A DNA stretch of 64,000 bases from an uncultured Methylomirabilota bacterium (lineage in GTDB: Bacteria > Methylomirabilota > Methylomirabilia > Methylomirabilales > 2-02-FULL-66-22). The stretch lies in assembly GCA_963705305.1 (NCBI GenBank), contig OY970067.1, forward strand, positions 2,432,001 to 2,496,000, read 5' to 3'. The notes under the pieces were generated by a model. That model was not told the DNA's origin, ran no database searches, and saw nothing but the letters and a program-made list of their open reading frames with translations. This document shows positions 1-12,795 of this stretch, piece after piece (within the stretch, counting starts at the first letter, position 1; the number at the start of each line of letters is the position of its first letter). The translations under genes and the position numbers were made by a program.

Positions 1-490
1 TTCCGCATCTTCCCTTCCCCTTCGACCTCGCGCTCCTTCGACGAACCTGATCGCAGCCAGCCGGTTTGATGGGAGATGCCGAGCCGCTTTTTTGCACATC
101 CCTCGAGCTGACTCCGGCGGCAGAGCCCGAGCGGGTCTGTGTAACCGGTATCCAGGGTGGCGGCACGGCAAAAATCCCCGCCACACGACGATAGGTCTAC
201 GTCTGGTAGTAATATATGACACTGAGCGTCCTGCGGACAGGGTGTGCTGCAAGCCCGCGCCCCTGCCGGGCAACTTGGCAGTGAACCGCGCGCGAAAAAG
301 GGGGAAATGCGTCTTTGCGCGTTGTTCGGGTGCCCCCCATCCAGATCGCTGGTCTCTGCATCCAGGGTCAGATGGCCTTCAATTCGCTGCCCAAGGGGTG
401 GATTCCCCGGAGCCGCGCCCGCGCCGGCTGGCCCGGAGCGCATTGGCGGCGTATAATGCCGCGATCATCGTCGAACCGAGAGGAGATCGG

Positions 491-1669
491 ATGCAATACC
501 GTCCGTTTGGCACGACCGGCTTCCAGGTATCCGTCCTGGGGTTCGGTGCAATGCGGCTGCCGCTCCGGGGTCCGGGGGCCGGCGACATCGACCTGCCCCA
601 GGCCGTGCGCATGCTCCGCACCGCGATCGACGCGGGGGTCAATTACGTCGACACAGCCTTCGGCTATCACGACGGCCGGAGCGAAGCGGTGGTGGGACAG
701 GCGCTTCGGGACGGCTACCGCCGCCGGACCAAGTTGGCGACCAAGCTTCCCTCCTGGCGGGTCAAGTCCGCCGCCGACTTCGATACGTTCCTGGGCCAGC
801 AGCTCGACCGCCTGCAGACGGAGGACATCGACTTCTACCTGCTGCACAATCTCAATGCGGCCGACTGGCCCCGGGTGAAGAACCTCGGCATCCTGGAGCG
901 CGCCGGGCGGGCTCTTCGCGACGGACGGATCGGCGCCCTGGGCTTTTCCTTCCACGATCAGCTCCCGCTGTTCAAGGCGATCGTGGACGCTTACCGCTGG
1001 GATCTGTGTCAGATCCAGTACAACTTCATGGACATCGCGTACCAGGCCGGCCGGGAAGGGCTAGAGTACGCGGCCGGCCGGGGCATCCCCGTGGTTGTGA
1101 TGGAGCCCATCCGCGGCGGCCAGCTCGCCCAAGAGCCGCCGCCGGCCGTGGCGGAGGTCTGGGCCCGCTCCGCCATTCGCACCACGCCCGCGGACCGGGC
1201 GCTGCAATGGCTGTGGGATCAGCCCACGGTCACCACGGTCCTCTCCGGGATGAGCAGCCTGGAGCAGGTGGAGCAGAACCTGGCCAGCGCCGCGCGCAGC
1301 CGGCCCGGCAGCCTGCCGGAGACCGAGCGCGTCCTCTACCTCTATGCCAAGGCCGCGTACGAGGGCCTCAAGCCCATCCCCTGCACGCAGTGCAAGTACT
1401 GCCTGCCCTGCCCAAACGGCGTGGACGTGCCGCGCAACTTCGAGCTGTACAACGACACCGTCATCTACGGCCATGCCGACAAGACCCGGCGCACCTACCG
1501 CATGTTCTTCCCCGCCGAGCACCACGCGGACAAGTGCGAGCGCTGCGGTGAGTGCGAGCCAAAGTGCCCGCAGCACATCCCCATCATGGAATGGCTCCCC
1601 AAGGTCGAGGCGCGCCTGGGCGACCACGGCCGGATCGGGGGGTCCCGCGCCTCAGCCGCGAAGCGGTGA
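491..1669 (+). CDS. Aldo/keto reductase with C-terminal 4Fe-4S ferredoxin-like domain
   Basis: ATG 491 after AGGAGA; MQYRPFG..LGFGAMRLP, DTAFGY, LATK and FYLLH AKR motifs; C-terminal CTQCKYCLPCP and CERCGECEPKCP. Confidence 0.9.
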   Translation: MQYRPFGTTGFQVSVLGFGAMRLPLRGPGAGDIDLPQAVRMLRTAIDAGVNYVDTAFGYHDGRSEAVVGQALRDGYRRRTKLATKLPSWRVKSAADFDTFLGQQLDRLQTEDIDFYLLHNLNAADWPRVKNLGILERAGRALRDGRIGALGFSFHDQLPLFKAIVDAYRWDLCQIQYNFMDIAYQAGREGLEYAAGRGIPVVVMEPIRGGQLAQEPPPAVAEVWARSAIRTTPADRALQWLWDQPTVTTVLSGMSSLEQVEQNLASAARSRPGSLPETERVLYLYAKAAYEGLKPIPCTQCKYCLPCPNGVDVPRNFELYNDTVIYGHADKTRRTYRMFFPAEHHADKCERCGECEPKCPQHIPIMEWLPKVEARLGDHGRIGGSRASAAKR

Positions 1670-2025
1670 GGGGGGCCCGACCGTCGAGGGGACGTTGCTT
1701 CTTTGTTCTCCTTGCTCCAGACAGACTGAAGAGGTGCCGGCGTAATCCGCAAACACCCGCCCCGCCCACCGGCTCCGCCGACCCCGCCGGCCCCGTGTCC
1801 CTTGGACAGACAACCGCGCGGCAGGACGTTGCCTATTCAGTAAGGCGGTGAGACACTGCTGAGGGCCGGGGCTGGAAGCGAGGCGATGGCATCTGAGCAC
1901 CGACGGCGGAGAAGCCGTACGACGCCTTGCGGGAGACGATCGATACATCCGAGTTCCTTACCGCGCCCAATGGTCGAGTCCGGGACCCGGAGAGAGGTCC
2001 GGGCGACAGCGAAAGGAGGCTCTCG

Positions 2026-2253
2026 ATGCTCGTGATCAGCGCGAAGGGGATCATCTATGATGTTCCGGAAAAAGTGCTCGAGAAGCATACGTTTCCCCGC
2101 TGGATCGACAAGAAGGACGAGATCCTGAAGATGTTCACCTCCCTGTCCAAGGTCATCAAGGAGTCGAAGACGGGGCTGAAGGGAGATGTCGAGGGGCAGG
2201 GGTGCTGCAACCGCTACGCGAACTGGTGCCCGCCGGGAGGAGCGGACATCTGA
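2026..2253 (+). CDS. Putative RiPP precursor peptide (75 aa)
   Basis: AAGGAGG RBS before ATG 2026; GC3-rich codons; charged leader ending ..GDVEGQ followed by Cys/aromatic core GCCNRYANWCPPGGADI; directly upstream of two radical SAM genes. Confidence 0.75.
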   Translation: MLVISAKGIIYDVPEKVLEKHTFPRWIDKKDEILKMFTSLSKVIKESKTGLKGDVEGQGCCNRYANWCPPGGADI

Positions 2254-2404
2254 GCGATCCGGCCAGCCGGGGCTTCACGATGACACGACGGATGCCGCCA
2301 GCGGATCATTCGGAGGCTGAAGGGTGCCGCCGGCCCATGCGAGGCCCTGTCTGGAAGCGGGAAACCGTTGGCGGGCAGCGGTCCGCTCCTGAAAGGCCCA
2401 GGCC

Positions 2405-3595
2405 ATGAAGAGGGCCCCCGCTCCACAAAAGGGCGTCCTGCGAGACCTTGCCGGTGTCACCGCGTGTCCGCTGACGGCATGCAACCTGAGGTGCTCGTAC
2501 TGCTACCAGGATGCCGAGCAGTTCTCCGGTTCTCCGCAGTACCTGCCGGGCGTGCATGATCCGGTCCGGCTCGCCGCAGGCCTGGCGCGCCTGCTGTCAC
2601 TGTCCCGGAGGCCGAACCATTCCATCGTCCTCTCGGGGGGTGAGCCGCTCCTCCTGCCGGAATCGTGGTACCGCGCCTTCTTTTCGGCCATGGATGGCGG
2701 GATGCCCGCCTCGAAACAGATCCGCTATTCCCTGCAGACCAACATGCTTCGCTGGGACGATGGGGTCATGTCGCTCCTGGCGGAGCGCCGGGCGCACTTC
2801 TCGGTCCATTACGACGGCCCCGGGGGGGACGCTTCGCTCCGCGCCGAGGAGCGACGGGCAAACATCGAGCGGCTGCACGCCAAGGGGTGCTCGATCACCG
2901 CGATCGTGGTGGGAACCCCTCCGGCCCTGGCGGAGCTCTCCGCCACCCTCGAGCTGCTCCGACGCTGCGGGGTCAAGCATTACCACCTGAACTGCGTCTC
3001 CGGGGAAGGGCGGGGGGCCGGATCGCCGCAGCCCGATCCGGCGCGGAGGGCGGAGGCCGAGTTCGAGAGCGCGTTCTTCGCCTCCCAGAGCGACTTCGCG
3101 ACCTGGGACCCCGTCATCATGAACAAATTCGCGAGCCATGCCAGGTGGGCGGCCGGGGGGAGGAAGCAGCCGCCCACGCCGGTCCCCCAGCGGTGCGGCG
3201 CCGGCACCAAAACGGTCGTCATCTCGTCGGACGGGACGATCTTTCCGTGCGGGTTCTTTCCGCGGGCCGCGGGCCCGATGGGGCACATCGCCGGCCTCCC
3301 GGCGCTCGGCGCCGAGGCGGCCCGGTCCATCTCCCGCTGCGGGAAGGCGAGTCCGTTCTTCGAAGAGCGGTGTCCGGAATGTCCGGCCCTTCCGATCTGC
3401 GGGGACTACTGCGCCCTCACGCCGACCGGGGACGGCGGCTTCATGGGCTCGTTCTGCGAATCGCAGCGCCGTCTGATGGCCCTGATGGAGGAGAGTCGGC
3501 GGCTGGCGACTCTGATTGCCAGGCGGTTTCTGGCGTACCGGACCGCCCGCCCGGGCGAGCGGCCGACGACCTGCGGGGTCACGTACGGCGAGTAG
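2405..3595 (+). CDS. Radical SAM protein with SPASM domain
   Basis: CNLRCSYC (CxxxCxxC), SGGEPLL, QTN; C-terminal CGAG..DGTIFPC and CPECPALPICGDYC..C (Cx2Cx5Cx3C). Confidence 0.9.
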   Translation: MKRAPAPQKGVLRDLAGVTACPLTACNLRCSYCYQDAEQFSGSPQYLPGVHDPVRLAAGLARLLSLSRRPNHSIVLSGGEPLLLPESWYRAFFSAMDGGMPASKQIRYSLQTNMLRWDDGVMSLLAERRAHFSVHYDGPGGDASLRAEERRANIERLHAKGCSITAIVVGTPPALAELSATLELLRRCGVKHYHLNCVSGEGRGAGSPQPDPARRAEAEFESAFFASQSDFATWDPVIMNKFASHARWAAGGRKQPPTPVPQRCGAGTKTVVISSDGTIFPCGFFPRAAGPMGHIAGLPALGAEAARSISRCGKASPFFEERCPECPALPICGDYCALTPTGDGGFMGSFCESQRRLMALMEESRRLATLIARRFLAYRTARPGERPTTCGVTYGE

Positions 3596-4348
3596 CGGAA
3601 TGGCCCATCGGCGGGCACCCGTCCACCGAGCGGGTCCCGCCGCAACCGGGGGATTGCCCGCCGGCAGGGAGCGCACAGACGAGCCGGGAGGGACGGGTGG
3701 GCGCGTCGCGCCGGGGGTCCGGCACTGTTCTGTATGTCAACTCGGCGCTGCGGGAGAGCGACTGGTTTATCGTTCCGACATCGATCACCACGCTCATGCA
3801 GACGCTGCCGCCGCGCTGGCATCGGCAGGGCGTTTTCGCGTGGGAGCTGACCGATGCCCTGATCCGCTCCGCCTCGGCGATCATCCTCGATTGCCACTGG
3901 TTCACTTCCCTGCCGGAGACCATCGGCCTCGTGCGGTGGGTGCGCGACCTCTGCCCGCAGACGCCGGTCATCCTGGGCGGCTACACGGCCCAGCTCTTCC
4001 ACCGGGAGCTTCTGCCTCTCGTCGGCGCGGCCTATGTCATTCGGGGAGACAACGAGCAGGCCTTCCCGCGCCTGGTGGATGCCCTCTGCCGGGGGGATGT
4101 CGACGAGGCCCGCCGCCTGCCGAACGTTGCCGGCGCGGATTTCGCCAATCCCATCACCTACCGATTCGGGCCGGAGGATTATGCGGGGATTTTATTCGGG
4201 ATCGACTGGTTTCCGTCGTACGCGCGCCGCATCGCCATGATCAACAAGGGGAACTGCCTCGGCATGGACCACGAGTTCTACCGCTATCCGCTCCTGGTCA
4301 TGTCCAAGGGCTGTTCCCAGGATTGCCCGTTCTGCCTGGGGAGCACTA

Positions 4349-5516
4349 GTCTAGTGTGTCATAAATACGGTGACTTATAGTACGTACTCTGGTATGCTCC
4401 TCGGTGAGGAGGAGCAAGCCATGCGTGTGGCGGTGCCGATTGTGCTGAGCCCGCAGGAACGCACCATCTTGGAACGCTGGGCACGGGGGCGGCGCACCCC
4501 CGCGCGCCTCGTGCGCCGGGCGCAGATCGTCCTGCGCGCGGCGGCGGGGCAGCGGAACGACGAGGTCGCCCGGGCCCTGGACACGGATCGCGAGTGTGTG
4601 GGTCGGTGGCGGACTCGCTTCGCCCAGCAGCGGCTGGCCGGGATCGAGCGGGATGCCCCGCGCCCCGGCCGGACGCCCGCCATCGCCCCGGCGGTCCTGC
4701 AGCGCATCGTCACCCTGACGACAACCAGCGCGCCGCCCGCCGCCACCCACTGGAGCACGCGGACCCTGGCGGCCGCGGTCGGCGTGAGCCCGAAGACCGT
4801 GCACCGGGTCTGGCAGGCCCACGGCCTGAAGCCGCATCGGGTCCGCCCGTTCAAGGTGAGCCGCGACCGGCGGTTCCTCGAGAAGCTGACCGATGTGGTG
4901 GGGCTGTACCTGAATCCCCCTGAGCACGCGTTGGTGCTGTGCGCCGACGAGAAGAGCCAGATCCAAGCGCTCGACCGCACCCAACCCGGCCTCCCGCTGA
5001 AGAAGGGCCGGTGCGGCACCCTGACCCACGACTACAAGCGGAACGGCACGACCACGCTCTTCGCCGCCCTGGGGCTCGTGACGGGCCAGCTCATCGGCAC
5101 GTGCCTGCCCAAGCATCGGCACCAGGAGTGGCTCCGGTTCCTCCGGCTGATCGACGCGCAGACCCCGCCCGACCTGGACCTCCACCTGATCGTGGACAAC
5201 TACGCCACCCATAAACACCCTGCGGTCCAGCGCTGGCTCGCCCGCCACCCACGCTTCCACATGCACTTCATTCCGACCAGCAGCTCGTGGTTGAATCTCA
5301 TCGAGCGGTGGTTCCGGGAGCTCACGACCAAGCGGCTCCGCCGGGGCGTCTTCAAGAGCGTCGCCGACCTCATCGCCGCCATTGAGGCCTTCATCGCACA
5401 CCACAACCGCCACCCCCGGTCGTTCACCTGGACGGCCAAGGTGGAGGACATCCTGGCGAAAGTCGAGCGGGCTCGAGCAGTGCTGCATAAGATGGCATCT
5501 GTGTGACACGGTAGAC
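4349..5516 (+). mobile_element. IS630-family insertion sequence
   Basis: Terminal inverted repeats GTCTAGTGTGTCA / TGACACGGTAGAC; TA duplicated at 4347-4348 and 5517-5518 within CTAG; encloses a transposase. Confidence 0.93.
4421..5506 (+). CDS. IS630-family DDE transposase
   Basis: GAGGAGGAG RBS; N-terminal HTH region, [29 protein letters not shown]. Confidence 0.95.
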
Positions 5517-6250
5517 TAGGTGCTACAAACGCCTCTTCGACCGCGCCCAGGTTCCCATCCCCTTTCCCCATCTGGAGAAGATCCTCCGCAGGCTGGAAGG
5601 GGACCCCGCGACACCCGCCGCGCATCTCTACTTCAACTGGCCCGTTTCCGAATACCGCTCCTTCTTCGCCCGGCACCGCTTCAGCCTCGACCTCCTGAGC
5701 CAGATCGATGTCCTCCCCGACCTGGAGGACCTGCGGGTCCTGGCAGGCGCGTTTCGCAGCAGCCTCTTTTACGTCGGCCTCGGCCATGCCGTCTACAGCG
5801 ATCGCGCGGACCCGGAGATCGACGTTCGGCGTTATCTCGACGCGTTCGGCCGGCTGAAGTTCTTCGTCTCCCGGGCGCAGTACGACGCGTTGCGGGGCCG
5901 CTACGGCGACCGGCTGCTCTCGACGACCGACACCTGGCGGATCCCCGAGCTCTTCGACGGGTTCGAGAGCTGCCTGAAGAGGGCCGTCGCCTCGGCCAGA
6001 CGGCTCCTCCTGGAGGACCCGCGGGCCTGGGCCTTTCGCCTGATCCTTCGCGACCACCCCGCCTACCGCCGGCGCCTGTTCCGGGCCCTGGGCCTCCGGG
6101 CTCGAGAACGTCCGCGGCAGGGCCATGCACTACAGCCAGGAAGAGTACATCCTGCACCGGAACGCCTGCTAGCGTCGGCGGCGCTGAAGAGGGCGTGGCC
6201 GCCGCCTCGATCCGGGCCATTCGCGCTTCCGATCCATTGCGCCTATTCGC

Positions 6251-6279
6251 TTGACACGCCTCCCGCTCTGAGACATTCT
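6251..6279 (+). promoter_or_regulatory. Putative sigma70 promoter for the ABC operon
   Basis: TTGACA-17 bp-CATTCT upstream of the solute-binding protein gene. Confidence 0.4.
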
Positions 6280-6536
6280 GTGTCGGCCCGCGGGGGTTGC
6301 GTGCGGCTGTGGCCCGCCATGAACGGGTGTCTGCCCGACCCGCCGCCGGGGGTCTTACGCTTCGCAGCTCCTTGGGCCGCCATTTCCCATCTCCATCTCC
6401 AGGGGCGCCGGTCCGCCAGCGCCGGCGGAAGGCATGGCGCGTGCGGGCGTAAACGTCCCGGAGAGCCGGAGTGCCTATACGGCGTCACTGTCTTGCGCGA
6501 AGGTCCAGATGCGTTGTTCAGAGGAGGATGGTTTCG

Positions 6537-8147
6537 ATGCGACGGATTCTTATGATCGTGGCGGTAGCGCTGTTCATGCTGGGGGCGACGGCGGACGTCG
6601 GCTCGGCGGCCCGCCCGGGGGGGACGTTCAACTTCGTCGTGCCCTACGGCGGGGACGTGTTCACCCTGGATCCGCACCGGACGCCGAACACCAACGACAT
6701 CATCGTGACCATGAACATCAACCGCAGCCTGTACAGCTGGGACGACAACGCCAACCGGCCCAAGCTGGAACTGGGCGAGAAGGCAGAGGTGTCTCCGGAC
6801 GGCCTGGTCTACCGGATCGCGCTCCGGAAGAACGTGAAGTTCCACAACGGCCGCCGGATGACCGCGGACGACATCATCTGGAGTTATGAGCGGATTCTGA
6901 ATCCGAAGATCGCGTCGCCGTCGGCCCGCTTCATCCGGGTGATCAAGGGGGCCCAGGAGTTCGAGGAGGGGAAGGCCACCCATAGCTCCGGCCTCCGGAA
7001 GATCAACGACTTCACACTCGAGATCACCATGGACAAGCCGATCGATCCGGCCTATACGCTGTACGAGGGAGGAACGGCCATCCTGCCGCGCGAAGAGGTG
7101 GAGAAGCGCGGGGACGCCTTCGGGACCGATCCGGTGGGCCTGGGCCCCTTCAAGTTCCTCCGATGGGTGAAGGGCAGCGAGATCGTCCTGGTCAAGAACC
7201 CCGACTATTACGAGAAGGGGAGGCCGTATCTGGACAAGGTGGTGTACAAGGTCATGCCCGAGGGGGCCGCCCGCGACGCCGCCTTCCGCGCCAAGGAGCT
7301 GGACGCGACCGTGGTGGGCGCGGCCCAGTACCCCGCCTACGAGGCGGACCCGGAGATCTCCAAGAACCTGGTGGAGGTGGCCGAGCTGTTCACGCGCCTC
7401 ATCGGCTTCAACCCGAGGTTCGAGCCCTTCGCCAAGAAGGAGGTCCGCCAGGCCATCAACTACGCCATCAACTCCCGCCTGATCATCGATCGCCTACTGA
7501 AGGGCAAGGCCTTCCCGGCGGTGGGCTACCTGCCCACGACCTCGCCGGCGTTCGATCCCAAGGCCAAGGGGTACGAGTATAATGTCGAGAAGGCCAAGGA
7601 GCTGATGAAGAGGGCGGGGTACGAGAATGGCTTCACCTTCGAGTGCATCGGGACCAGCAACGAGTCCTGGGGGATCCCGGTGGTCGAGGCCATCATGCCC
7701 TTCCTGAAGCAGATCAACATCACGGTGAAGCCCCAGCAGCTGGAGGGGGGCACGCTGTCCGACCGGATCCGCAAGATGGAGTACCAGGCCTTCATCTGGT
7801 CGGTATCCAGCGGCGCGGGTGGCGACGCCCTCCAGGCTCTCGCCCGCTGGGGCTCGAAGAATTCGGCCGCGGGCGGGAACTTCGTCGAGTACAGCAACCC
7901 CGAGTTCGACAAGCTGCTGGATCAGGCCGGCAAAGAGCGGGATATCGCCAAACGAAACGAGATCCTGCGCAAGGCCGACGCCGTGTTCCGGGAGGACGCG
8001 CCGGTCTGGTTCTTCAACTACAACAAGGCGGTGATCGCCCACCAGCCGTGGGTCCACGGCATCAAGAAGGCCGCGATCGAGATGATGTTCCAGGACCTGA
8101 CCGATCTCTGGGTGGACGATAGCTCTCCGCGGGCCAACGTCAAGTAG
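6537..8147 (+). CDS. ABC transporter substrate-binding protein, family 5 (peptide/nickel type)
   Basis: GAGGAGG RBS; signal peptide; TLDP, LRKNVKFHNG..TADD, PVGLGPFKF, VRQAINYAIN. Confidence 0.93.
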   Translation: MRRILMIVAVALFMLGATADVGSAARPGGTFNFVVPYGGDVFTLDPHRTPNTNDIIVTMNINRSLYSWDDNANRPKLELGEKAEVSPDGLVYRIALRKNVKFHNGRRMTADDIIWSYERILNPKIASPSARFIRVIKGAQEFEEGKATHSSGLRKINDFTLEITMDKPIDPAYTLYEGGTAILPREEVEKRGDAFGTDPVGLGPFKFLRWVKGSEIVLVKNPDYYEKGRPYLDKVVYKVMPEGAARDAAFRAKELDATVVGAAQYPAYEADPEISKNLVEVAELFTRLIGFNPRFEPFAKKEVRQAINYAINSRLIIDRLLKGKAFPAVGYLPTTSPAFDPKAKGYEYNVEKAKELMKRAGYENGFTFECIGTSNESWGIPVVEAIMPFLKQINITVKPQQLEGGTLSDRIRKMEYQAFIWSVSSGAGGDALQALARWGSKNSAAGGNFVEYSNPEFDKLLDQAGKERDIAKRNEILRKADAVFREDAPVWFFNYNKAVIAHQPWVHGIKKAAIEMMFQDLTDLWVDDSSPRANVK

Positions 8148-8298
8148 GCGCCATCCCCCGGGGAGCGGGGGGCCGCGGAAATCCGAGGGTGTTTGCGGCC
8201 TCGAACCCGGACCCCGTCGCGAGGTTCGGGTTCACGCTGGTGTTTCCGTCAGGGCAGCGGGCGGCCGTTAGGGTCGCCCGCTGCCCATCGGGTTCGCG

Positions 8299-9237
8299 AT
8301 GCTCGCGTACGCACTCAGACGACTGCTGCAATTCGTCCCGACCATCCTGGTCATCTCGCTGATCATGTTCCTGCTGCTCAACGTCTTGCCCGGGAACGCG
8401 GCCCTCGTGGCGGCCGGCCCGCAGGACCGGGGGATGGACGCCCAGTTCGTCGAGCAGATGGTGAAGCAGTGGAACCTGGACAAGCCGCTGCACACCCGTT
8501 ACCTCATCTATCTCAAGAACCTGGCGCGTGGAAACCTGGGGCTGTCCTTCCTTCGCCGCGAGCACGTGACGGACGTGGTGCTGGCGCGGCTGTGGCCGAC
8601 CCTGAAACTGGCGCTGGCGGCCATGCTGATCGCGGTGGGGTGCGGGATTCCGCTGGGCTTCCTCTCCGCCCTGCGTCAGGGGTCCTGGCTGGACGCGGCC
8701 TCCATGGTGGGGGCGGTCTCCGGGGTGTCCATTCCGCAGTTCTGGCTGGGCCTTCTGCTGATGTTCTTCGCCTCGGTGAAGCTGCGCCTGCTGCCCACAT
8801 CGGGCTACGGGCAGGGGGGAGATCTGGCCCACCTGATCCTGCCCGCCGTCACGCTGGGCGTGGGGTACATGGCCCTGCTGGCCCGCACCACCCGGGCGGC
8901 CGTTCTGGAGATCCTGGGGGCCGAGTACGTGCGGACCGCCGAGGCCAAGGGACTGTCGCGCCTGGTGATCCACGGCAAGCATGTCTTCCGGAACGCCCTC
9001 ATCCTCGTCCTCACCACGGCCGGGCTGCAGTTCGGCTCGCTGATCGGGCAGACCGTGATCGTGGAGAAGCTGTTCTCGTGGCCGGGGCTGGGGTCGCTCT
9101 TGGTGGATACCATCTTCCAGCGGGATATCCCGGTGGTCCAGGGCTGCGTGCTGGTGATCATCGTCGTGTTTCTCGTCGTCAACCTGGCCGTGGATCTGCT
9201 GTACGCCCTGATCGACCCCAGGATCGAGTACCGATGA
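8299..9237 (+). CDS. ABC permease (OppB/DppB-like)
   Basis: GNLGLSF, LILPAVTLG, EAA loop EYVRTAEAKGL, HVFRNAL. Confidence 0.93.
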   Translation: MLAYALRRLLQFVPTILVISLIMFLLLNVLPGNAALVAAGPQDRGMDAQFVEQMVKQWNLDKPLHTRYLIYLKNLARGNLGLSFLRREHVTDVVLARLWPTLKLALAAMLIAVGCGIPLGFLSALRQGSWLDAASMVGAVSGVSIPQFWLGLLLMFFASVKLRLLPTSGYGQGGDLAHLILPAVTLGVGYMALLARTTRAAVLEILGAEYVRTAEAKGLSRLVIHGKHVFRNALILVLTTAGLQFGSLIGQTVIVEKLFSWPGLGSLLVDTIFQRDIPVVQGCVLVIIVVFLVVNLAVDLLYALIDPRIEYR

Positions 9238-10076
9238 ACGGGACTGTGCGGGCCCTCGGCCGGCAGAAGAATCTGATGGTCGGGGGCCTCCTCACGCTGA
9301 TCATCGTCCTCATGGCGGTCCTGGCCCCCGTCCTGGCCCCCTACGATCCGGTCAACCACGCCGATCTCCTCCATTCGGAGGAGCCGCCGAGCCTCACCTT
9401 CCTGTTCGGTACGGACACCCAGGGTCGGGACATCCTGTCGCGGGTCATCTACGGGGCCCGGGTCTCGCTGAGCATCGGCCTGATCACGCAGGCGCTGAAC
9501 AGCCTCATCGGGGTCCTGCTCGGCCTCACGGCGGGATTCTTCGGCCGCTGGTGGGATGATCTGGTGATGGGACTCACCAACATCATGCTCTCCATTCCCG
9601 GAATGATCTTCGCCCTAGCGGTTATGGCCGTCCTGGGACCCGGCCTCTTCAATGTCTTCCTGGCTCTCGGCTTCACCAACTGGTCCTACAGCTGTCGGAT
9701 CACGCGCTCGCAGGTCCTGGCGGCCCGCTCGCTCGATTACGTGGTCGCCGCCCGGGCGCTGGGCCAGGGGGGCCCCCGCATCATGCTGAAGCAGATCCTG
9801 CCGAACATCGTCGGGCCGATCCTGGTCATTGCGACGCTGGGGGTGGCCTATACGATCCTCACGGAAGCGTCGCTCTCCTTCCTGGGCCTGGGCGTACAGC
9901 CCCCCACACCGAGCTGGGGCGGCATGCTCTCCACGGCGCGCGAGCAGCTATTCACGGCCCCTTGGATCTCCATCTTTCCGGGGCTGGCTATCTTCGTCAC
10001 GGTCCTAGGGCTGAATCTGCTGGGAGACGGCTTGCGGGACATCCTGGACCCGCACACGGCCCGGCAGCGGAGATGA
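9234..10076 (+). CDS. ABC permease (OppC/DppC-like)
   Basis: ATGA overlap with upstream gene; FGTDTQGRDILSRVIYGAR, LGVQPPTPSWG, NLLGDGLRD. Confidence 0.93.
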   Translation: MNGTVRALGRQKNLMVGGLLTLIIVLMAVLAPVLAPYDPVNHADLLHSEEPPSLTFLFGTDTQGRDILSRVIYGARVSLSIGLITQALNSLIGVLLGLTAGFFGRWWDDLVMGLTNIMLSIPGMIFALAVMAVLGPGLFNVFLALGFTNWSYSCRITRSQVLAARSLDYVVAARALGQGGPRIMLKQILPNIVGPILVIATLGVAYTILTEASLSFLGLGVQPPTPSWGGMLSTAREQLFTAPWISIFPGLAIFVTVLGLNLLGDGLRDILDPHTARQRR

Positions 10077-11663
10077 GCATGGACATTGCGATTCTTTCCG
10101 GTCGGATCTTCACCGGCGATCCGGTGCGACCCTGGGCCGAAGCCGTGTGCCTGAGGGAGGGGCGGATCGCCGCCGTGGGCGGCACCGCGGAGGTGCGGGC
10201 GGCGTGCAGCCGGGGGGCGCGGATCTTCGAGCTGCCCGGGCGGCTGGTGACGCCAGGGATCGTGGACGCGCACCTGCACTTCGTGGGCTTCGGACTGTAC
10301 CTCCGTCGGATCGACCTGCGCGGCCTCCCCTCCATCCAGGCCTGCCGGGAGCGGGTGCGGGAGGCGGTGCGGACCCGGGTACCGGGCGAGTGGATCATCG
10401 GCCGCGGCTGGCACGAGCACGACTGGGCGGAGCGGCGCGAAGCGGGCAGACGGGACCTCGACGACATTGCGCCGGATCACCCGGTGATGCTGATCCGCCA
10501 CTGCGGCCACACCGTGTGGGTCAACTCGGCGGCCCTGGCCAGGGCGGGGATCGCCAAGGGGACACCGGACGCCCCGGGGGCCCGCATCGAGCGGGATCCC
10601 AAGACGGGGGAGCCGACGGGTCTGCTGCGGGAGTACCGGAAGATCATCGAGAAGATGATCCCCCCCCACGCTGGAGGAGCGGAAGGACGCGGCGCTGCGC
10701 GCCCAGGCGGAGGCGCTGCGCTTCGGGGTGACGGGGGTGCACTCCTGCGAGACCCTCCTGGAGTGGGAGGCGCTGGCCGCCCTGGAAACGGAGCAGCGGC
10801 TTGTGCTACGCATCCACCACACCCTGCCGCCCGAGGAGCTGGAGCGGGCAAAGGTGCGGGGGATCGAGCCGGGCCGGGGGAGCGACCGGCTCTGGTTCGG
10901 GCAGGTGAAGCTGTTCGCGGACGGGACGCTGGGATCGGGAACAGCCTTGCTCCACCAGCCCTACGCGGACGATCCCTCCACCCGGGGACTCGAGTGCCTC
11001 TCGGCGGCCGAGCTGCAAGAGCGGACCGAGCTGGCCTACCGCTACGGGGGGGACGTGGCCGTCCACGCCATCGGGGATCAGGCCGTGACCAACGTGCTCA
11101 CCGCCGTCGAGGCGGCGCGCAGCCGCCTCCCGGGGCCCCGCCGCGACCGCGTCGAGCATGTCCAACTCGTCCGTCCGGACGACCTCGCCACCTTCCGGCG
11201 CCTGGGGGTGGTCGCCTCGGTGCAGCCGGTGCACCTGCTCACCGACATGCCGGTGGCGGAGCGGAAGTGGGGGATGGGTCGCTGCCGTTTCGCCTACGCC
11301 TGGAAGTCTATGCTCGATGCGGGGATTCGGGTGCAGTTCGGATCGGACGCCCCGGTCGAGTCGATCAACCCGCTGCTGAGCTTCCGCGCGGCGCTGAGCC
11401 GGCAGAGTCTGGCCGGCGGGCCACCGGGAGGGTGGTTCCCCGCCGAGCGGCTGACCCTGGAGGAGACCCTCCGGGGCTTTACCGCCGAGCCCGCTTGGAC
11501 CTCGCGGAAAGAGCATGAACTGGGCGTGCTCGCCCCCGGACGAAGGGCGGATCTCACCGTGTTCGCGGAGGACCTTTTCGGCAGGCCGCCAGGGGACGTG
11601 GCATCGGTCGAGGTGGAGATGACCGTGGTGGATGGCGAGGTGGCGTACCAGCGGGCGACCTAG
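10073..11663 (+). pseudogene. Amidohydrolase (YtcJ/Amidohydro_3-like), frameshifted at a C8 run (10660-10667)
   Basis: N-half PGIVDAHLH, GHTVWVNSAAL, PTGLLRE; C-half in another frame VKLFADGTLGS, HAIGD, RVEHVQ, FGSDAP; one C fewer restores the frame. Confidence 0.85.
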
Positions 11664-11856
11664 CCCTGGACTGAAGAAACTTTTGAACCGCCATGGCGCC
11701 AAGGCCCTACAATGAACAGGGTTCGGAGGCTTTGAGTCTTGGCTCCGGGCGCCCCTTCAGGGGACTTGAGGCGATTTCAGCCGCTGTGCGTCCCGTCCAT
11801 TCCAGCTATGCGATTCTTGGCGACTCGGCAGTGAGATGTTTTCGGAATGGGGCTGG
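11660..11856. repeat. MITE-like element, copy 1 (197 bp)
   Basis: Starts at CTAG; long imperfect terminal inverted arms; colinear with 39772-39969. Confidence 0.7.
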
Positions 11857-11913
11857 CACGCCCTCGGTCGAGGACGGACAAGGTGTCCCCGGCTGTTCCG
11901 GTCTGAGCAGATT

Positions 11914-12795
11914 TCAGCGCCCCTGGCGGAGCTTCTCGTAGAGGGCCTGGACCTCGCCCAGGTCCCGGCGGAAGGGGCCTTCGGCCTCGAGCTTCAGGCT
12001 GGTGACGGCGGCCGCCCAGACCACCGCGTCGGCGGGCGGGGCCGACAGGCGCCGCGACAGATAGGCCGCCGTGCAGGTATCTCCCCGCCCGCTGCGCCCC
12101 CGGATGGCCTGGGGGGCGAACGGCGCCTCGGCGCATTCCTTGCCGCAGCAGACAAGCACCCCCCCCGCATGGGTGAGCAGAACCTCGCGCGGCCCGGAGG
12201 CCGCCAGGCGCTTGGCGGCCTCGTATCGATCGGACTCGCCGGTAATCATCCCCGCCTCGACGGCATCCGTCTTGAGCACGGTGACATGCCGCAGGATCTC
12301 CTCCTTGCCCGGCCAGGCATCGGCAATCAGGAGGCCGTCCTGCACGACGCGGAGGAACCCCTGGACGTCGAGGGCCAGGAATTCCCCGTTGGCGGCCAGC
12401 GCCCGCACCACCTCGGCCGGGACCTCGCCCCGCACGGAGGCGCCGATAACAAATGCCCTGGCCTCCAGCCCCGCAATCTCCTCGAGGGTGAAGGATCCCG
12501 CCGAGCTGGTCAGCTCGATCGTCCGCTCATCCAGGTTGGCCGTCGGGTAGGTCAGCCGCAGGCAGGTGGAGGCGGGGGTAGCCGTGGCGTAGGGGGTCAC
12601 GCCCAGGCGCTCCAGCTCGCGCACGACATGCCAATCCTCGCGGGCGAGCCGGGTGACAACCGCGGTGCGCAACCCCATGCGCGCCGCCACGTGGGCCCCG
12701 TAGTTGAAGGCGCCCCCGTCCACAACACGGGTGACCTGCGGATATACGATGGTATCCTTGGTGTAATGGCCGACGAAGATGATGTCGAACGTCAT
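11914..12795 (-). CDS. PfkB/ribokinase-family carbohydrate kinase
   Basis: VGHYTKD, DGGAFNY, LDVQGFLR, C-terminal GRSGRGDT. Confidence 0.85.
   Translation of the reverse strand: MTFDIIFVGHYTKDTIVYPQVTRVVDGGAFNYGAHVAARMGLRTAVVTRLAREDWHVVRELERLGVTPYATATPASTCLRLTYPTANLDERTIELTSSAGSFTLEEIAGLEARAFVIGASVRGEVPAEVVRALAANGEFLALDVQGFLRVVQDGLLIADAWPGKEEILRHVTVLKTDAVEAGMITGESDRYEAAKRLAASGPREVLLTHAGGVLVCCGKECAEAPFAPQAIRGRSGRGDTCTAAYLSRRLSAPPADAVVWAAAVTSLKLEAEGPFRRDLGEVQALYEKLRQGR

Follow-up and report, generated by a model that had tools for sequence, protein, structure and literature searches.

The stretch of DNA analysed here, called the window, comprises 64,000 nucleotides of contig OY970067.1 (positions 2,432,001 to 2,496,000 of the forward strand; assembly GCA_963705305.1) from an uncultured Methylomirabilota bacterium. 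The source genome, G000, is a single-contig assembly of 5.65 Mb that is 98.9% complete. Close to the start of the window lies a candidate cassette for a ribosomally synthesised and post-translationally modified peptide (RiPP), consisting of a small open reading frame (ORF) for a putative precursor peptide, a gene for a radical S-adenosylmethionine (SAM) enzyme with a SPASM domain, and a second radical SAM gene of the B12-binding-domain type that is split by an insertion sequence (IS). An earlier note on this DNA had described a 75-residue ORF with a strong ribosome-binding site followed by the two enzyme genes on the same, forward strand, and both the coordinates and the order of these genes were correct. 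The peptide family of the window cassette is termed type-1, and a second family with a homologous leader is termed type-2. The features of the locus are listed below; G018 is a second genome of the same genus, in which the third gene is intact.

2011..2019, + strand: ribosome-binding site GAAAGGAGG, read directly from the sequence, 6 nucleotides before the precursor ATG
2026..2202, + strand: putative precursor leader, residues 1-59, MLVISAKGIIYDVPEK...RWIDKK...LSKVIKESK...GDVEGQG; conserved in 13 type-1 relatives
2203..2253, + strand: putative precursor core, residues 60-75, CCNRYANWCPPGGADI, and TGA stop; core pattern found in relatives
2405..3595, + strand: candidate radical SAM/SPASM peptide maturase, 396 residues, without an N-terminal RiPP recognition element (RRE); PF04055 2.7e-13, TIGR04085 35.6 bits
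3697..4348, + strand: 5' portion of the radical SAM gene of the B12-binding-domain type, with the Rossmann-like domain and CSQDCPFC, interrupted by the IS; shares 81% identity with residues 2-232 of the G018 ortholog
4349..5518, + strand: IS of the IS630 family, 1170 bp, with transposase ORF 4370/4421-5506; NF033545 271.7 bits, TA and inverted repeats
5519..6172, + strand: 3' portion of the B12-type radical SAM gene, covering the barrel and the C-terminal helices; in frame 1 it shares 74% identity with residues 231-433 of the G018 ortholog

The precursor ORF (2026-2253, +) encodes 75 residues, starting with MLVISAKGIIYDVPEK and ending in ...GLKGDVEGQGCCNRYANWCPPGGADI. The core had been given previously as 17 residues, which holds if the last Gly of the junction is counted; 16 residues follow GQG. 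The precursor stop is separated from the SPASM ORF by 151 nucleotides, and this intergenic region (2254-2404) contained no structure above shuffled controls (z = -0.01). A scan of the locus for promoters and terminators gave nothing convincing.

Ten homologs of the precursor were found at 70-92% identity and with lengths of 72-87 residues, eight of them being exactly 75 residues long; the source label of one is a Candidatus Methylomirabilis metagenome-assembled genome. A profile search added three more distant type-1 peptides, with 19 matches overall among 5.8 billion protein clusters. Comparison of five loci (10 pairs) revealed that substitutions in the precursor peak at codon position 3 in 10/10 pairs, for example 6, 8, and 19 at positions 1, 2, and 3, respectively. 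In addition, the block GAAAGGAGgCTCtCGATG, which includes the ribosome-binding site, is kept in 5/5 aligned loci, and the DNA farther upstream diverges. Together, the homologs, the third-codon bias, and the retention of the ribosome-binding block amid diverged upstream DNA indicate that the precursor ORF is more than a chance ORF.

Inspection of the type-1 family reveals a leader/core junction of the form [D/E]V[E/K]GQ[G/S/N]. Core patterns were counted over the 13 type-1 relatives from the database, and CC-x2-[Y/F/H]-x-N-[W/Y]-C-P was present in 10 of them. P0009 and P0010 carry only the N-terminal half of this pattern, CC-x2-Y-x-[D/N] (cores CCTFYEDCAE and CCGIYPNYAE), and P0183 joins the same leader to an unrelated core, AADCRANCDC..., which retains only Cys and Asn of the family elements and in which Arg replaces the aromatic residue. 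Taken residue by residue, the CC pair is invariant in 12/13 cores and the aromatic triplet [Y/F/H]-x-[N/D] is present in 12/13, followed by W/Y-C-P in 10; Glu-Asp stands at the conserved Asn position in a single relative (1/13). A constant leader with changing cores is typical of RiPP precursors. None of the Pfam or NCBIfam families claims the peptide (domain calls here and below were made with Pfam and NCBIfam hidden Markov models (HMMs), each judged by its own cut-off).

An exact scan for GDVEGQGC, with one genome per species, returned 83 stretches, and no credible precursor was found elsewhere in the 80 that were scanned. Twenty of these 80 have 40 codons or fewer between the motif and a stop, and were rejected as precursors on inspection by eye, as they look like chance or out-of-frame occurrences (Arg/Gly/Ala-rich and without a Lys-rich leader; radical SAM neighbours did not enter into this judgement). 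A protein atlas search with the precursor was likewise rejected, its best score of 0.87 (SnoaL-like clusters) falling under the lead level of 0.9.

Distribution and neighbourhood of the cassette

The cassette was sought in 251 genomes of the phylum, comprising 21 of the source genus (G000 and 20 others) and 230 of other families. The peptide profile matched four genomes, all in the source genus (G000, G014, G018, and G008), which corresponds to three of the 20 other genus members and 0/230 genomes of other families. Type-1 peptides occur only in G000, G014, and G018, and G008 has type-2 only. The SPASM enzyme was found in exactly the same three genomes as the type-1 peptide, 3/21 of the genus. 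Carriers of the cassette are a few members of one genus, from soil and sediment, and the source records of the relatives bear Methylomirabilis or Methylomirabilales names.

Six type-1 loci were available for comparison: the window, L013 in G018, L016 in G014, and the metagenome loci L017, L018, and L019. The peptide gene is followed directly by the SPASM gene in 6/6, and the B12-type gene follows in all four loci long enough to include it (the window, L013, L016, and L019). By contrast, the outer flanks vary, with an aldo/keto reductase and an ATP-binding cassette (ABC) importer in the window, SRAP and ankyrin genes in G018, SRAP in L017, and a short-chain dehydrogenase/reductase (SDR) in L018. 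Given that the outer neighbours change between loci, the trio of genes is a self-contained unit. The reading of the small ORF as a precursor, made in the earlier note, is supported by this pattern, which ties the ORF to the SPASM enzyme. In the loci examined, homologs of the enzymes neither lacked the small ORF nor sat beside sulfatases or other protein targets, and no sulfatase gene is present within window positions 1-12000.

We read the trio, with a probability of roughly 70%, as a RiPP precursor together with the SPASM enzyme that matures it and a tailoring enzyme of class-B type, which is inactivated in G000.

Several neighbouring genes were recorded. Just upstream, at ∼490-1669 (+), the window encodes an aldo/keto reductase fused to a C-terminal 4Fe-4S dicluster domain (Aldo_ket_red 2.9e-32 and Fer4_9 6e-8 in Pfam), a neighbour that is not conserved in other genomes. 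Just downstream, positions 6471-10076 (+) were assigned by eye to a peptide/nickel-type ABC importer, also not conserved with the cassette, with parts that appear to be a family-5 substrate-binding protein (6471-8147) and two permeases. In G014, an extra 342-residue radical SAM gene (CLNACRHC; L016 942-1970, -) lies between the SPASM and B12-type genes; it gave only weak NCBIfam matches (E >=1e-5), and this variant of the cassette has three radical SAM enzymes.

Disruption of the B12-type gene in the source genome

The B12-type gene probably starts at GTG 3697, judging from the short N-termini of its orthologs. Its 5' fragment ends four codons (L-G-S-T) past CSQDCPFC and then runs into TAGTCTAGTGTGTCA..., the left end of the IS. 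The right end is an imperfect inverted repeat, ...TGACACGGTAGACTA; the terminal inverted repeats span 15 nucleotides, of which 13/15 positions match, and the TA duplication is found at both ends of the element (4347-4348 and 5517-5518). The transposase scored 271.7 bits against NF033545, for which the cut-off is 100. The B12-type gene picks up again at 5519 in the same frame. A second lesion was revealed by DNA alignment with the intact ortholog, in the form of one extra base at 6120-6124. This +1 frameshift leaves the end of the 3' fragment (the last ∼16 codons; last 19 residues aligned) readable only in frame 2, with the ancestral stop TAG at 6170-6172. The site is a GGGCC run in a single-contig assembly, and the frameshift may be an assembly error.

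For annotation of the source genome, the third gene should be entered as a two-part pseudogene split by IS630. No paralog of it was found in G000. The earlier note was right that a B12-binding radical SAM gene is present; the gene is not intact, and neither the IS nor the frameshift was named where a "reconstructed B12 enzyme" was mentioned. The two-enzyme maturation cassette proposed there is not a working one in G000.

Nine full-length copies of the IS are present in G000 at 100% identity (the window copy counted), together with diverged relatives at 66-84%, and the identity of these nine copies indicates that the insertion is recent. Public sequence contigs covering the region were short and of low depth. 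Two of them, X1 and X3, represent parts of 2000-2397 at 100% identity, and the remaining pieces are IS copies with other flanks; none of the public contigs found spans either IS junction or the frameshift site. The single public RNA run covers only a diverged relative of the IS.

Given this damage, a serious alternative, which we hold at clearly less than even odds, is that the G000 locus is a decaying remnant without current function, in which the peptide and SPASM genes are intact only because the damage is recent. The two lesions in the B12-type gene speak for it, as do the nine identical IS copies, which imply that the element is active now or was so recently, the absence here of a promoter-like block found in three relatives, and the lack of curated start or terminator signals in the scan. 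Set against this are the uninterrupted peptide and SPASM ORFs with their intact ribosome-binding site, the chance that the frameshift in the GGGCC run is an artefact of the assembly, and the possibility that a SPASM-only product still arises. Moreover, decay would bear on the G000 copy only and not on the family.

Relationship to known enzymes and proposed chemistry

The SPASM domain of the first enzyme exceeded the TIGR04085 cut-off (35.6 bits versus 27). Its CxxxCxxC motif (C26/C30/C33) begins at residue 26, which leaves no room for an N-terminal RRE. The SPASM motif CX9-15GX4C...CX2CX5CX3C...C is complete and conserved, following the seven-Cys pattern C264-X12-G-X4-C282; C323-X2-C326-X5-C332-X3-C336; C351, and the conserved Cys residues in this part of the enzyme are C264, C282, C312, C323, C326, C332, C336, C351, and C390. 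Among NCBIfam equivalogs, PapB (NF047865) was the top match at 57.7 bits versus a cut-off of 340 (E 1.1e-15), the alignment placing query residues 24-138 on profile positions 11-121 of 330. This was followed by AmcB (NF041718; 49.6 bits versus 425), YhhB (NF041707; 46.2 versus 445), anSME (TIGR03942; 46.1 versus 349), FxsB (TIGR04269; 39.8 versus 370), GrrM (TIGR04261; 27.8 versus 310), and XyeB (TIGR04496; 24.0 versus 450), such that no curated equivalog family claims the enzyme. A word-indexed search in which 8000 candidates were scored identified 13 relatives at 65-80% identity and one at 42%, the next match having 34% identity across 36% of the length.

The AF2 model of the SPASM enzyme (pLDDT, the predicted local distance difference test score, of 82) matched the fold of anSME best (E 1.5e-12, template-modelling (TM) score 0.62-0.68), then that of ChlB (E 7e-12), a cyclophane synthase whose solved structure includes the leader of its substrate, and after it CteB, TigE, SkfB, and SuiB. 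A sequence-profile search of the PDB gave the same order (anSME 8.6e-17, 64.3 bits; ChlB 63.7 bits). Complex prediction with the precursor and the SPASM enzyme, run without controls, scored 0.02 and is evidence for neither side.

The intact B12-type ortholog of G018 is ∼434 residues long. Scores against PF02310 (B12-binding) were 27.5-28.5 bits for the window fragment and the intact ortholog, under the cut-off of 32.1, and PF04055 went undetected. TIGR04190 (Ta0216-type B12/radical SAM, function unknown) gave 44.7 bits for the window fragment (7e-12) and 52.2 bits for the ortholog versus a cut-off of 500. Curated NCBIfam equivalogs do not claim the gene, and its top relatives match only generic class-B models, far under their cut-offs. 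The verdict of the earlier note, which recognised no family, is upheld for all three genes. The CxxxCxxC motif is invariant among the orthologs. When the G018 protein was scored against 1.84 billion cluster representatives, with 150 listed, close clusters were found at 58% and 46% identity, and the best of the other 148 listed was at 34%, some shorter matches reaching 36-40% over part of the length. There were 705 matches at E <=1e-3 overall, the distant ones mainly over the first ∼300 residues. By these comparisons, the SPASM enzyme and the B12-type enzyme both appear to be isolated clades.

The AF2 model of the G018 ortholog (pLDDT 90.5) resembled TsrM, TokK, MgmA, and CysS (E 4.5e-10 to 5e-7), as well as OxsB, with E values to 9e-6 and TM scores of ∼0.5; further matches were AprD4 and MiaB/RimO, whose two domains are arranged similarly. 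The modelled fold is in keeping with a class-B architecture, for which cobalamin binding and methyl transfer would be the predicted functions. The cobalamin-dependent methylation of the earlier note was overstated, given that its basis is a sub-threshold PF02310 match and TM scores of ∼0.5. A MiaB-like auxiliary Fe-S cluster in the N-terminal domain was considered and rejected, as the cysteines there are unconserved.

Peptide- and protein-modifying class B enzymes (TsrM, MgmA, PoyB/C-type TIGR03975, and ApyD) likewise place an N-terminal Rossmann-like domain before a CxxxCxxC barrel, and the B12-type gene likewise stands beside a RiPP precursor. It differs in that ∼434 residues is at the short end (the solved fold matches have 417-729 residues and the NCBIfam models 382-645 positions), and, with PF02310 below cut-off, PF04055 undetected, and TIGR04190 at 52 bits versus 500, its cobalamin use is a prediction.

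In the proposed pathway, the 59-residue leader ending in [D/E]VEGQG would dock the peptide on the RRE-less SPASM enzyme, for which ChlB with ChlA, going by the title of the PDB entry, offers a parallel. A 5'-deoxyadenosyl radical would then take a hydrogen from the core, most likely from the β-carbon of the conserved Asn (Asp in one relative), and the resulting radical would be captured within the peptide. The first choice for capture is a Cys sulfur, which would yield ranthipeptide- or sactipeptide-like thioether rings built from the third Cys and the invariant CC pair. Almost as likely, the adjacent aromatic ring of [Y/F/H]-x-N would take up the radical and form a triceptide-like cyclophane. 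The B12-type enzyme would subsequently tailor the crosslinked core, most likely by cobalamin-dependent C-methylation, and leader removal and export, if any, would occur in trans. In the source genome the B12-type step would be lost, leaving the SPASM step at most.

Provided that the trio is indeed such a cassette, thioether formation falls just short of an even bet. It is slightly favoured over a cyclophane, the two fitting about equally, and the lean towards it follows from the CC of 12/13 cores, the Cys and Asn kept in P0183, and PapB as the top NCBIfam match. The known systems PapB/freyrasin and CteB/thermocellin (ranthipeptides and sactipeptides) similarly place a Cys-containing core behind a leader, with a radical SAM/SPASM enzyme alongside. 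The highest NCBIfam score went to PapB, CteB was matched by both fold and sequence, and the PapB model, going by the profile coordinates, seems to have no more room for an N-terminal RRE than the window enzyme has. However, 57.7 bits versus 340 places the window enzyme outside NF047865. According to PMC9413430, PapB uses repeated Cys...Asp/Glu pairs, which the cassette cores lack, their candidate acceptor being Asn. The cassette also differs from ranthipeptides and sactipeptides in having a leader unrelated to the curated ones, a B12-type radical SAM partner, and no accompanying protease or exporter.

Possible, but on the doubtful side, is that the SPASM enzyme is a triceptide-like cyclophane synthase joining the [Y/F/H] ring (perhaps also W/Y) to the β-carbon of the residue two positions on (Asn/Asp), the cysteines being left to form disulfides, bind metal, or be acted on by the second enzyme. 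The aromatic-x-[N/D] element is found in 12/13 type-1 peptides with Y, F, and H interchanging, and the core fits the aromatic1-X2-X3 definition given for triceptides in PMC11499958, which covers His motifs. The enzyme is RRE-less and of ∼400 residues like ChlB, its second-best solved relative by both profile and fold, and AmcB, YhhB, and FxsB are within the top six NCBIfam matches. Triceptide enzymes more widely (ChlB, AmcB, YhhB, XyeB, and HtkB/HaaB) are RRE-less and have ∼370-400 residues. Nevertheless, all cyclophane-family scores are far under their cut-offs (24-50 bits versus 310-450), which puts the enzyme outside those families. The invariant CC and the third Cys are not triceptide features and would be left unexplained, the core has one motif and no repeats, and P0183 has Arg for the aromatic residue yet keeps Cys and Asn. 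Chemistry of some other kind, the remainder within the cassette reading, is unlikely.

One such form of chemistry, which we regard as improbable, is an anSME-like reaction in which the Cys of W-C-P-P/N is converted to formylglycine or a thioaldehyde (which may condense in the peptide), or a non-crosslinking reaction such as epimerisation. It has in its favour that anSME (PDB 4k37) is the best solved match by profile and fold and shares the layout of no RRE and a full SPASM domain, that C-P-P is similar to the start (C-x-P) of the sulfatase motif C-x-P-x-R, and that the eight or nine conserved Cys suit fully ligated auxiliary clusters, a feature of anSME. Yet TIGR03942 gave 46.1 bits versus 349, and anSME is a generic top match for many SPASM enzymes. 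The partner here is a 75-residue peptide and not a sulfatase, none being encoded nearby, and its C-P-P-G-G lacks the Arg of the sulfatase motif (C/S-x-P/A-x-R). Least probable of all is that the peptide, in place of being exported as a natural product, gives rise inside the cell to a cofactor or a small redox-active molecule, like pyrroloquinoline quinone or mycofactocin, which would explain the missing protease and exporter (none being conserved with the trio in six loci) and would suit a short, C-terminal core and the oxidoreductase genes upstream in two loci (the window aldo/keto reductase with its Fe-S domain and the L018 SDR), but is opposed by the lack of conservation of those neighbours (SRAP in G018 and L017), a patchy distribution over 3/21 genus genomes unlike that of a core cofactor, the variation of the cores, one of which is wholly different, and the ABC exporter and S8 protease that adjoin the sister peptide family in G000.

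Several observations weigh against the preferred reading of the trio as precursor, maturase, and tailoring enzyme. Modification of the core by the cassette enzymes is something we infer throughout. Equivalog scores of 24-58 bits versus cut-offs of 310-450 mean that homology cannot choose between thioether, cyclophane, and other chemistry. The [Y/F/H]-x-[N/D] motif, the RRE-less length of ∼400 residues, and the kinship with ChlB, AmcB, and YhhB point instead to a cyclophane. As a weaker point, both auxiliary clusters might be completely ligated by the eight or nine Cys conserved in the C-terminal half, with no obvious open iron for a substrate thiolate. The earlier note had seen no local peptidase, exporter, or RRE, and none was found; neither is any of these conserved with the trio in the six loci, and none of the three genes gave an RRE-type Pfam or NCBIfam match. 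Such an element is dispensable, ChlB and anSME-type enzymes being without one.

The second enzyme adds further difficulties. Its B12-binding match lies under the Pfam cut-off, and its fold matches include AprD4, which is not known to use cobalamin. Searches of the 98.9%-complete G000 genome gave no match to CobS (PF02654) or CbiC (PF02570). Despite this, G000 contains eight other B12-binding-domain proteins above the Pfam cut-off, which makes cobalamin salvage plausible. CobS was also not found in the five genus-mates G008, G014, G018, G019, and G020, and the source genus probably relies on salvaged cobalamin. A link between losing the B12-type gene and losing cobalamin synthesis was considered and rejected, CobS being absent from the matches in 6/6 genus genomes, including G018 with its intact gene.

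The upstream region bears on expression at this locus. G018, L017, and L019 have in common a promoter-like block, TTGACA...GATATT, ∼130-150 nucleotides upstream of the peptide ATG. The DNA upstream in the window (1826-2010) has no TTGACA-type block and is unrelated beyond ∼25 nucleotides before the ATG. The window copy may have lost its native promoter, and its expression is uncertain as a consequence.

Among RiPPs modified by radical SAM enzymes, the cassette is best regarded as a new and rare member; whether it is a new class hinges on the chemistry. It is one more uncharacterised family among thousands, published work mentioning ∼3900 triceptide pathways and nearly 15,000 RiPP radical SAM proteins. 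DVEGQG and NWCPPGG were not found in the literature covered, which excludes subscription-only papers; a sole match to VEGQGC, an unrelated paper on Fasciola cathepsin, was discarded. Nor was any paper found linking Methylomirabilota or Rokubacteria to such a cluster, in coverage that leaves out most subscription journals.

Were the cassette to work as proposed, RiPP biosynthesis would gain a further precursor family, along with two radical SAM clades that branch deeply, all from an uncultured lineage that has received little study. The compact pairing of an RRE-less SPASM enzyme and an unusually small B12-domain-type enzyme with a 16-residue Cys/aromatic core would make it tractable. RRE-free leader recognition, Asn as a thioether or cyclophane acceptor, and the role of a minimal class-B enzyme are questions that could be addressed with it.

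A second peptide family in the source genome

The sister system is also encoded in G000, 1.74 Mb from the window cassette, at G000:C1 ∼4.169-4.177 Mb (locus L006, G000:C1:4166000-4180000), and includes the following features.

L006 3310-5856, - strand: ABC exporter, 848 residues, near the type-2 peptide
L006 5853-7205, - strand: TIGR04463/Clo7bot-like radical SAM/SPASM gene, extended at the N-terminus; full-length match at 3.2e-54, below cut-off
L006 7657-7863, - strand: type-2 peptide, 68 residues, ...KKKKGDVEGQGCGFAAIGGVRG; leader homology and GDVEGQ junction
L006 8052-9152, part of ORF, - strand: PapB/QhpD-like radical SAM/SPASM gene; 3.3e-46
L006 10280-11041, + strand: QhpE-like S8 protease, near the type-2 peptide

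A GAF protein is also encoded near the type-2 peptide. The type-2 leader is 32-38% identical to that of type-1 over 39-59 residues (tblastn; E 1e-4 to 1e-6 in small searches). The arrangement of a peptide gene between two radical SAM genes recurs in G018 (L014) and G008 (L015), and the exporter and S8 protease accompany only the G000 copy. The type-2 peptide of G008 (L015 7843-8052, +) and the database cluster P0185 have the sequence ...GDVEGQEGVRTPAAIGGVRG with zero cysteine. Judging from this Cys-free peptide, Cys cannot be a universal target in the type-2 family, the conserved element of which is AAIGGVRG.

A broader proposal, rather unlikely when taken as a whole, is that the [D/E]VEGQ leader labels peptides for two or more unrelated groups of radical SAM maturases, that a shared peptidase or exporter acting in trans would recognise the junction, and that the outcome is a new modification pattern and a new RiPP class. 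The first set would be the RRE-less SPASM enzyme and the minimal B12-type enzyme acting on the CC...N-W-C-P core, and the second an RRE-bearing TIGR04463-like enzyme and a PapB/QhpD-like enzyme acting on the ...AAIGGVRG core. The type-1 pattern might then join cobalamin-dependent methylation to, for example, thioethers from Cys to Asn or a Cys oxidation of the anSME type. The occurrence of one leader with different maturases in a single genome offers a natural experiment in the modularity of leaders and enzymes. One of the identical IS630 copies, at G000:C1:4161065-4162234, lies ∼8 kb from the sister peptide cluster.

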